64,000 nt of DNA from Paraspadella gotoi (Eukaryota; Animalia; Chaetognatha): positions 12,967,081 through 13,031,080 of the forward strand of contig CM119267.1 of the NCBI GenBank assembly GCA_051294375.1, given 5' to 3'. Made by a program: the position numbers and the translations under genes. Below are positions 4,772 to 7,700 of the stretch, piece by piece; the first letter of the stretch is position 1; every line of letters begins with the position of its first letter. Under the pieces are notes generated by a model, which worked only from the letters and a program-made list of their open reading frames with translations, ran no database searches and had not been told where the DNA came from.

Positions 4772-7700
4772 CTGGTTGGGAATCAGGAGTGTTTAGAATG
4801 GAACCATTTATATTATATAGCATGTATACTCATACTGACTTTAATTTCGTAATATTTAGCATTAAATGGCAATCTATTATTGGCTCTATACAATTATTTT
4901 TGAAAGCACCGCATGAAACTCACCGTGCTCCATGAGTTTGATAGAATTTTCTGACGACATGTAGGGGTTGTCGGGATCGATGGAATCAGTGGACTTGATG
5001 ACGCTGCTTCCTCCTCCGCCTAACAGGTGACTGGATGATTCACTTTTGATCTTCTTCAAGTTTGAAACTGGAAGAAAATAAATAATTGTTCGTATTATGG
5101 TGGACTAAAATCCACCAACCGTTCATCAGCGGCCATTGGTGCCGGAGGCAAGTCATTCGCCTCCCAACCCAAAGGTCCGGGGTTCTCGCCCGGTGGTCGT
5201 CTGGCAGTTAAGAGGGACGGGGCGCTTAACCCGCCTGTAACATGGTGTTACAGCCTGATCCGAAGCTCAGGGACTGCTTATATTGAACGGTTCTATCATT
5301 AACATATAACAATAATTACTGTCTCTTCAGTATCTTGTAAAGATGTAAGGGTATTTTTAGCTTTTATATCCAGAACCACGAGATTTAGTTTTCCTTAGAC
5401 TCGATTTGTCATTCGCTAGTTGGCTCGGCCAAGTTTTTTTTTTAATTCTTTCTCTCCGAAGGCTTTCCCAGTCTGCTTTTTCGCGTCCGACTGCCAACAA
5501 CTGATAACAATCTTGCGGGCGACTGGAAGCCACGCACTTCCGCTTTCCCCCCTCTCTTTTTTTTTCCTTCTCTCATCCCGCAACCTGTCGTCCCTTCAGA
5601 GGATACTCTTTTTTTTTTCATATCAAGAGACTATTTCTCGTGTCCCCGCGAACTTTTTCGAGATGCTGGCGCCGGGCCAAATACCTAACCGAGGCATAGC
5701 GCACAATGATTTGATTATTTCCACAAATGGGAAAAGACGGAGGGCCCTTTAATCGTATATCGGGATGGTCATTAGTCAATTTTTCTAACTTATATTTCAG
5801 CAAACGTTTTTGTTCATGAACCTAAGTAATAAAAACTTGGTCGACTGACCGAAAAACGAAAACAATGCAAAAAGCGAGAGAGACTAAAAAGGACCAAAAA
5901 ACCCGAAAGACTAAACAAAAACTAAAGCGACCATCGCCATGTCGGCGCGGATTAGCGACGAGACGCTAAGACGAAATTAGTCGGAAGCCGCGGCGTCGCT
6001 CCAACCTGAAAAGTCCTAATTCCTCGATTCTGAAAATCCGGTCCAACTGTTTGAGCGGACAGACTCAACGGCGGACATGCTTACATAAATCGCTGATCTC
6101 CTTTTGTGCTGTTTATCACCGACCTGTGTTAGTTTCTTTGCCCTTCTTATTTATTATCGGTAAAAACAGACAAAGGTCTAATTTCGCTTTGCAATGACTA
6201 ATCTAATGTCATTTCTGTTTATTATAACGTTGAGACTTCAATTGTTATCCTATGTTACAGTAGATTAAGATTTTCAGTTTTAGAAATTACGTACATGTAT
6301 AAATGATGGAGTGGGTCACAACGACAAATAGCAATTAACTGATTCGGAAAAAAAGTTGTCGCCGGAAAGAATGAGGCTACCTCGCTTCTTTTTTTCGGTG
6401 GTCAGGTCTGCGGGCTATCGACGGGCTGAGAATTTCATTCAGCGTCTCACTGATAATCTAAAAAAAACCTTTCAAAATTTCTCACCGTTTTCTCGTCCAT
6501 CTTCTTCGTTTCCGCTTCCGCCGCAAGAGGACGCGCCCCCGCTTCCCAATATCACCCCGCCTCCAGAAGGTCGCTTCAAGTGCATTCGATTTCGGCTGCG
6601 AGGTGAAAGAAACGGTTCTGAGAATTATTACCTGTTCCTCCTAATTATAAATTTTGTGTACATACCGCATATACTCGGCCAATCCCCCAGAGGCGTTGCG
6701 TTTCAGTGAGCTTTTAAATGGGACGGGGAATGTTGAGAAAAGTTGAAAAATAAAAAAATAATTTCCATCAATTGTAAGGCGTAGTGAAAGTTGCAGATCA
6801 AAATTCGAATAGTTGTTTTTGTCTTTTACTTACGAACAATGATATATAAAACAATTTTTTTTAATCTCTCAATTTTCGCAAATACTTATATTTATACATA
6901 GTACTTACCATAGAAAATTTCAAATATTTAAATTATTTTTTTTTTTAGTTTTGAAAGCAGATTCGAATTTTGTCATAAAAAGTTGATAAAAAAAATATAA
7001 GTCTTAATTAAACTATATTTGTTATACTAAAATTAAATAATAGGTTAATTATAACAGTTTTTTAAGAATTTTGACCCAGTTAATAAAATAATTTTCTAAA
7101 AAGAGTTATATTTATTTCTATCAACTTTTCGTGAGGAATTTGAATCTGCTTTCAAAAATAATAAAAATCTATTTTAAAATTGTAATATTTTCTATGGTAA
7201 GTATTATGCATAGTGAAGAGACAAAAATTATTGATATGTGTTAGTGACAGAACCGTTCAATATAAGCAGTCCCTGAGCTTCGGATCAGGCTGTAATACCG
7301 TATTACAGGCGGGTTAAGCGCCCCGTCCCTCTTAACTGCCAGACGACCACCGGGCTAGAACCCCGGACCTTTGGGTTGGGAGGCGAATGACTTGCCTCTG
7401 GCACCAATGGCCGCTGATGAACGGTTGGTGGATTTTAGTCCACCATAATAGTATGCATAAATATGGGCGTATGCAAAAATTCGGAAAAAAATTTTTTTTA
7501 TATATCTTTGTTCACTAGAGCGTTAAAAAATAACAAAATATAACAAATCAAGTGAGGTACATAGCTATTTTAGTGTAATGTAGTCTGTAGAATTCGATGG
7601 TGATGACCATTTTTTTGTATAATTTTATCTTTCTTGTCGGAAATGAGGGTTTTTAATGTATATAAAGTTGTTATAAAATAGCAAAACCATTATAAGTTTA

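Follow-up and report, generated by a model that had tools for sequence, protein, structure and literature searches.

The DNA analyzed here is a window of 64,000 nucleotides from the chaetognath Paraspadella gotoi (contig CM119267.1), in which genes and repeats lie side by side. A T-box exon was found at 22748-23011 (Pfam E 1.3e-16); the exons that likely come later on the minus strand are at about 4920-5068 and 3990-4790. Three of the four copies of the repeat described below (copies 1, 2 and 4) are located between the T-box exon and these likely later exons and are probably placed in introns of one gene; the intron around copy 1 is part of a minus-strand gene, which is probably the T-box gene, and a likely splice acceptor is 27 bp away. 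A divergent IRF gene (38425-39065) and an FMO gene (56403-60206) are also present. The IRF exon gave matches of 40-57% identity, with none above 57% among the best 150, and the named matches within the top ten were vertebrate, annelid and bivalve IRFs. The presence of an IRF gene marks the host as an animal, probably other than an insect. Long ORFs at 60894-63838 gave a weak STAT/SH2 lead (Atlas score 0.88, below the 0.9 mark). Three related decayed stretches at 14246-16051, 44048-45204 and 49387-50751, which are 73-79% identical and have no supporting Pfam match, carry motifs by which we take them to be fragments of Penelope-type retroelements. Another repeat family, of about 260 bp, has one common end (ATGAAATTGGTACAACC) and frequent truncations or internal deletions in the eight stretches aligned; it occurs at 612-873, 9147-9227, 26750-26926, 30002-30230, 35963-36066, 42097-42573 and 61981-62048, and no tRNA boxes were noted in it.

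The repeat under study is a unit of 234 bp that is present in three complete copies, at 5096..5329 on the plus strand (copy 1, a candidate solo LTR) and at 7214..7447 and 49066..49299 on the minus strand (copies 2 and 3). BLAST within the window aligned them without gaps at a pairwise identity of 92.3-95.3%, and on the strand that carries a tRNA-like segment (the tRNA strand) all of them have the termini TATGG..CTTCA. Each of the three is enclosed by an exact 4-bp target site duplication (TSD) of its own, GTAT, ATAG and AAAT on the plus strand for copies 1, 2 and 3, or GTAT, CTAT and ATTT when read on the tRNA strand; from the base composition of the window, the chance of three such matches is about 1e-7. 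The window alignment therefore bears out what the original prediction had said of the copies, their ends and their different TSDs. BLAST of the window added a fourth copy that had been overlooked, a 5'-truncated one at 12337..12448 on the plus strand (element bases 123-234), which is 91-95% identical and has an exact 3' end; no matching 4-bp TSD was found in its vicinity. Together with about 30 upstream and 6 downstream bases, copy 4 is flanked by two copies of TTTTACTAT (12299-12463), a pair that may have arisen as a 9-bp duplication in some other insertion or in a repair event. The host sequence of copy 2 is another AT-rich repeat, of which the two paralogues listed (at about 31980 and 34055) are empty at that site. 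A 9-bp tandem duplication adjoins the 4-bp TSD of copy 2 (7205-7459) and is missing from the same empty paralogues. An 8-bp TSD of copy 2 was rejected, since this reading fails to carry over to copies 1 and 3.

Read along the tRNA strand, with positions on the plus strand of copy 1, the unit begins with a hairpin at element bases 3-22 (5098..5117), whose 7-bp stem is identical in all three full copies. A decayed tRNA-like segment with a 7-bp acceptor stem and a broken anticodon stem follows at element bases 34-105 (5129..5200) and includes an A-box-like (5137-5148) and a B-box-like motif (5181-5191). Behind it are a structured body at element bases 106-197 (5201..5292), with three predicted hairpins inside a closing stem, and an AT-rich 3' end (5293..5329), which lacks a tail and has the CA-3' terminus CTTCA. 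The placement of the tRNA segment 33 nt inside the element and behind a terminal hairpin, as originally proposed, is thus correct, and the claim that there is no A-rich or simple-repeat tail, and no TTT in copy 1, also held. Copy 3 likewise has no T run of three or more on the tRNA strand; copy 2 has T5 at element bases 221-225. A 9-bp inverted repeat pairs element bases 22-30 with 189-197, and on either strand the predicted fold of the unit is better than that of its shuffles (z -2.67 on the tRNA strand, -3.03 on the other). Across the three copies a two-sided change was seen in 1 of 64 predicted pairs (in copy 2), too few to claim selection. A hammerhead ribozyme was considered and rejected: the antisense strand has CTGATGA without a GAAA after it, judged by what we take to be the hammerhead core motif, and Rfam gave no ribozyme match.

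The tRNA-like segment required closer attention. ARAGORN at its default threshold found no tRNA in the whole window and Rfam gave no tRNA match at E<=5 or E<=10; the intact cloverleaf of a functional tRNA gene was not detected at the thresholds of either program. With ARAGORN relaxed to 80% of its threshold, tRNA-Gly(CCC) was called at element bases 34-106 in all three full copies, at a setting where 78 of 1000 shuffles also match and the window yields 39 matches; in copy 2 the call persists to 87% of the threshold, where 9 of 1000 shuffles match. A second cloverleaf (Leu-TAA, element bases 97-184) was rejected, since it was seen only at the relaxed threshold that so many shuffles reach. The box layout fares better. 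A pattern of A and B boxes at tRNA spacing, composed after the sequence had been seen, is found in copies 2 and 3 and in 0 of 1000 shuffles, and a looser form of it matches copies 1-3 and one relative, nothing else in the window and 1 of 1000 shuffles. The signs of decay are two C-C mismatches in the anticodon stem, an A box mostly without its A, a T at the usual purine position of the B box (no variant being listed there) and, in copy 1, the loss of the T-loop A of the B box. Variants in public contigs suggest that the ancestor was a better tRNA: with T>C at 5197 and at 5200, two acceptor G-U pairs become G-C, C>A at 5143 brings back the A of the A box in 4-6% of the depth, and the B-box A that is missing from copy 1 is found in 97-99% of it. 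We conclude that the tRNA-like segment is real but decayed. Since the anticodon stem is broken, the Gly(CCC) isotype is uncertain and a working tRNA is unlikely. Of the earlier claim of a tRNA-Gly(CCC)-like segment, the box layout and the 7-bp acceptor stem remain; the resemblance is weaker than was stated, and the isotype was called only by relaxed ARAGORN.

The family could be followed in public contigs of nine runs, from one organism and three studies, each of which holds at least half of the words of 4600-5900; four of these nine runs may be the source sample. With 4900-5520 as the reference, matching contigs numbered 9,967 in run X1, 2,822 in X5, 2,115 in X8 and 976 in X9 (all of the host species, from three studies, one possibly being the source sample). 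The summed contig depth over 5096-5329 is about four orders of magnitude above that of the flanks, a depth figure that is no copy number. The 234-bp unit is a very abundant repeat. Among the 24 of 712 rows of loose ends listed, positions 5096 and 5329 have the biggest groups in each of the four runs, and the flanks there are mixed and AT-rich (agreement 0.38-0.43). TAT was found at positions -3..-1 in 35 of at most 252 end-bearing contigs of X1 and at +2..+4 in 30 of at most 228, against 3.1% by chance in each case; this enrichment on both sides fits a genome-wide 4-bp register with a mild NTAT preference and hinges on the handling of alignment ends. Copy 1 was found in all four runs, and no empty allele of it was present among the joints listed. 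Runs X10 and X11, from organisms B and C, gave 0 contigs matching the element, which is no proof of absence there, and exact-motif scans of metagenome contigs, viral contigs and prokaryote genomes gave 0 loci. Among the 40 of 41 variant rows listed for 5096-5329, 16 of the 25 C>T/G>A rows fall on CpG, which makes up 26 of the 120 C/G bases (P 1.4e-7), and the whole window shows no CpG depletion (observed/expected 1.14). The CpG bias of the variants suggests repeat-directed methylation in the host germ line.

A diverged relative of the 5' half of the unit (hairpin and tRNA-like part) is located at 32746..32850 on the minus strand; its first sign was a short BLAST match at 32742-32773. Its alignment score against element bases 1-105 is 125, a value for the whole aligned stretch of which the second half alone aligns poorly, and the maximum in 500 shuffles was 102. 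The relative still has the 5' hairpin, in which A-T replaces a G-C pair of the family, and has GGTTCG in its B box; a search for a TSD found none. It begins, at element base 1, with TGTAGTGG where the 234-bp family has TATGGTGG, and four of the five bases of TGTAGTGG match the inverted 3' end TGAAG. This terminal inverted match of four in five bases suggests that the lineage once had TG..CA ends. Against such an ancestry, diverged copies of the 234-bp family that align from 5099 still have TA at bases 1-2 (loose-end majorities of 14 and 10 contigs), and no TG-starting form of the family itself was seen in the contigs. Around the relative there is a large inverted repeat (arms 32130-32592 and 33286-33747, 79% identical), at the middle of which it lies among many CCCTAA-like motifs; the inverted repeat spanning 32130-33747 is possibly a foldback element that carried it. 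At least two diverged contig loci end their match exactly at element base 157 (5252), at TGTTACA, a sequence with which LTRs typically end; this hints at a shorter, perhaps older subfamily of 157 bp with the form TG..TGTTACA. Position 5252 does not appear among the 12 of 345 loose-end rows listed, and another diverged locus, in X8 and X9, spans 5095-5327, counter to such a subfamily.

Neither a PBS nor a PPT was found beside any of the four window copies in either orientation, as expected for solo LTRs, no two window copies are direct neighbours, no LTR-internal-LTR form occurs within the window, and inspection by eye of the window ORFs of at least 100 aa found no Gypsy gag-pol ORF. In the contigs, no head-to-tail joint was present among the 15 of 65 joints listed. 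One X1 contig of single-copy depth, from a comparison whose reference was without the 3' end, leads from 5284 back to base 5096 exactly; the 15 joints listed of the 40 in that set also include an internal joint of the go-back kind and a joint that changes strand. The contig fits a two-LTR or tandem locus, or a chance adjacency, the opposite-strand joint indicating that copies also adjoin by chance. Just before 5096, the majority sequence of X1, X8 and X9 terminates in AATG, which follows a purine-rich stretch in X1 and X8 (agreement 0.41-0.43), which could be the PPT signal of a subset or the same loci sampled in each run. Since a shared internal region would break into short contigs, a two-LTR form could be missed in such data.

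The original prediction had also stated that no family of this kind is known in animals. This claim falls, because Helenus, a group of tRNA-bearing TRIMs (TRIMp3) with 4-bp TSDs from six animal phyla, is of the same kind (Kojima, 2024, Biology 13:119, PMC10886601). Besides two LTRs around a short non-coding internal part, a PBS after the 5' LTR with a PPT before the 3' LTR, and predicted Pol III transcription from the cassette, Helenus is defined by three features that are found in the 234-bp unit: tRNA-like A and B boxes (degenerate here, with the GGTTC of the B box kept), a 4-bp TSD, and LTR-type termini and length, the TA..CA ends and 234 bp lying within the range of the Helenus LTRs seen (104-323 bp). 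As in Helenus, the A/B-box cassette is contained in an LTR-sized unit with a CA-3' end, the tRNA is non-functional and solo copies are common; unlike Helenus, the 234-bp unit has no observed two-LTR copy, PBS or PPT. Its TA start is shared with several wasp families, and TA..CA ends are listed for Helenus-3_TheEle, -2_EuAn and -3_MeDo. The window relative starts with TGTAGTGG like Helenus-3_PiIm, -2_LAn and -1_LiLo, the first of which has the ends TGTAGTGG..CTTCA. In most of the Helenus LTRs examined, the tRNA is close to the 3' end and a T run comes after it, whereas about 130 nt of structured body follow the tRNA in the 234-bp unit; a tRNA in the 5' part with a long 3' body is found in Helenus-1_MLe, -2_SyJa and -2_SyUm, and the T run after the tRNA is missing in the LTR-11_DR group. 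Some Helenus families are listed with the LTR only, and Pol III transcription of Helenus was predicted, not validated (PMC10886601). The supplement thus holds a precedent for every odd feature of our unit, which supports a Helenus-type reading. At the level of motifs, 7 of 11 short element motifs are absent from the supplement and 4 occur there as 8-12-base matches only. Given the low identities of its IRF exon, the host is probably none of the well-annotated species listed for Helenus. Four element motifs of 15-17 bases are absent from the literature searched, and Repbase or Dfam may already have a name for the family. Among the literature matches listed, there was no tRNA-bearing TRIM family besides Helenus, and TRIMp3 as a transposon term occurred only in Kojima (2024). 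The plant Cassandra elements and Ajax are 5S-bearing TRIMp3 (PMC10886601); the 234-bp unit resembles them in having an internal Pol III promoter, putative in our case, within the LTR of a non-coding element, and differs in that theirs is derived from 5S and not from a tRNA, that the Ajax TSD is 5 bp and that Cassandra is found in plants. A 12-base motif at 5223-5234 (element bases 128-139) is common to both Ajax LTRs of PMC10886601, and by a rough estimate a file so large would contain a few such matches by chance alone. Two wasp LTRs, Helenus-2_SyJa and -2_SyUm, show an apparent hammerhead ribozyme core after the tRNA. This core is not mentioned in the part of PMC10886601 covered here.

From these data we consider it fairly probable that the 234-bp units are solo LTRs of an undescribed Helenus-type (TRIMp3) family, for which a Gypsy integrase and the use of Pol III are both presumed. 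Three observations agree with a solo LTR: the TSD length is constant at 4 bp, the 5' end is sharp and precedes the tRNA by about 33 nt, and there is no tail. A Pol III transcript that is simply copied would not regain the sequence that precedes its start. The parent would be a short LTR-internal-LTR element in which the A and B boxes of the 5' LTR recruit Pol III, transcription starting near element bases 25-34. An autonomous Gypsy-type partner would reverse-transcribe the RNA, the first 30 or so bases (U3, with the hairpin) being rebuilt from the 3' LTR, and the DNA would be integrated at a target cut with a 4-bp stagger, NTAT sites being somewhat preferred. The monomers that are seen may then have been left when the two LTRs recombined. 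The original proposal, in which the unit is a solo LTR from a non-autonomous element that captured a tRNA promoter, accordingly stays the best reading of the unit, with Pol III use and the two-LTR parent as presumed parts of it.

Other explanations have to be weighed against solo LTRs of a Helenus-type family. The unit might be a DNA monomer, moved or copied by a DDE transposase that recognizes asymmetric ends, with the tRNA as a passenger. Every full copy seen is monomeric, the family is very abundant, and there is a hairpin at one end in addition to the 9-bp internal inverted repeat. A parallel exists in the solo LTDRs of KolobokP, which are likewise solo terminal-repeat units, possibly abundant, have 3-5-bp TSDs and can be excised as units (PMC9587614; the main text of this paper never uses the word tRNA). 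Unlike the 234-bp unit, KolobokP is a DNA transposon with RR..YY ends and TIRs. The 234-bp unit has no terminal inverted repeat (two of five bases match) and TA..CA ends, on account of which Kolobok and KolobokP (RR..YY with TIRs), IS3EU/GingerRoot (TA..TA with a 6-bp TSD) and CryptonS (direct repeats of 5-6 bp, mostly TATGG, at both ends, against TATGG at one end only) were rejected as its class, and no excised site was seen among the joints listed. We regard a DNA monomer as unlikely. Slightly more doubtful is a Pol II-driven LTR on the other strand (TG..TA), in which the tRNA-like piece would be an antisense insert with no promoter role. That strand begins with TG, a TATAAG box is found at its position 48, its folding is as good as that of the tRNA strand, and the A and B boxes are both off consensus; but neither strand has AATAAA or ATTAAA, the box layout is retained in the diverged relative, and the tRNA is in sense to the LTR in the Helenus LTRs examined (PMC10886601).

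A further possibility, to which we give a shade less credence again, is that no two-LTR parent with PBS and PPT is left and that what moves is one LTR-like unit alone, heavily folded and tRNA-bearing. Its copying would involve head-to-tail or circular intermediates, or else it would move as DNA, and a retroviral-type integrase would insert it and leave the 4-bp TSD. If true, such a unit would be a one-LTR parasite between SINE and TRIM at very high copy number; it would amount to a new mechanism only if the assembly shows the monomer as the sole form. We consider it very improbable that the unit is an atypical tRNA SINE, extended at its 5' end and dependent on a LINE or Penelope-like enzyme for its copying: the order of a tRNA head near the 5' end and then a body, the 5'-truncated copy with an exact 3' end (12337-12448) and the fragments in the window that by eye we take to be Penelope-like (no Pfam match) would suit it, but the tail is missing, the TSD is a fixed 4 bp in three of three copies instead of variable, and the single dominant 5' end, instead of coinciding with the Pol III start, precedes the A box by 41 nt in all three copies; the depth shows no step around the beginning of the tRNA. 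The unit shares with SINE2 a tRNA-derived head, an unrelated body and a high copy number, and differs from it in the absent tail, the fixed TSD and the 33 nt conserved upstream of the tRNA (general SINE2 features partly after PMC10886601).

As solo LTRs of a Helenus-type family, the units described here would probably add a new animal host to this group, with a family that is unusually abundant and whose copies are 92-95% identical. Such a family is suited to testing whether the tRNA cassette of Helenus drives Pol III transcription, and its recognition is of relevance for repeat masking and for the annotation of tRNA pseudogenes in the host genome.
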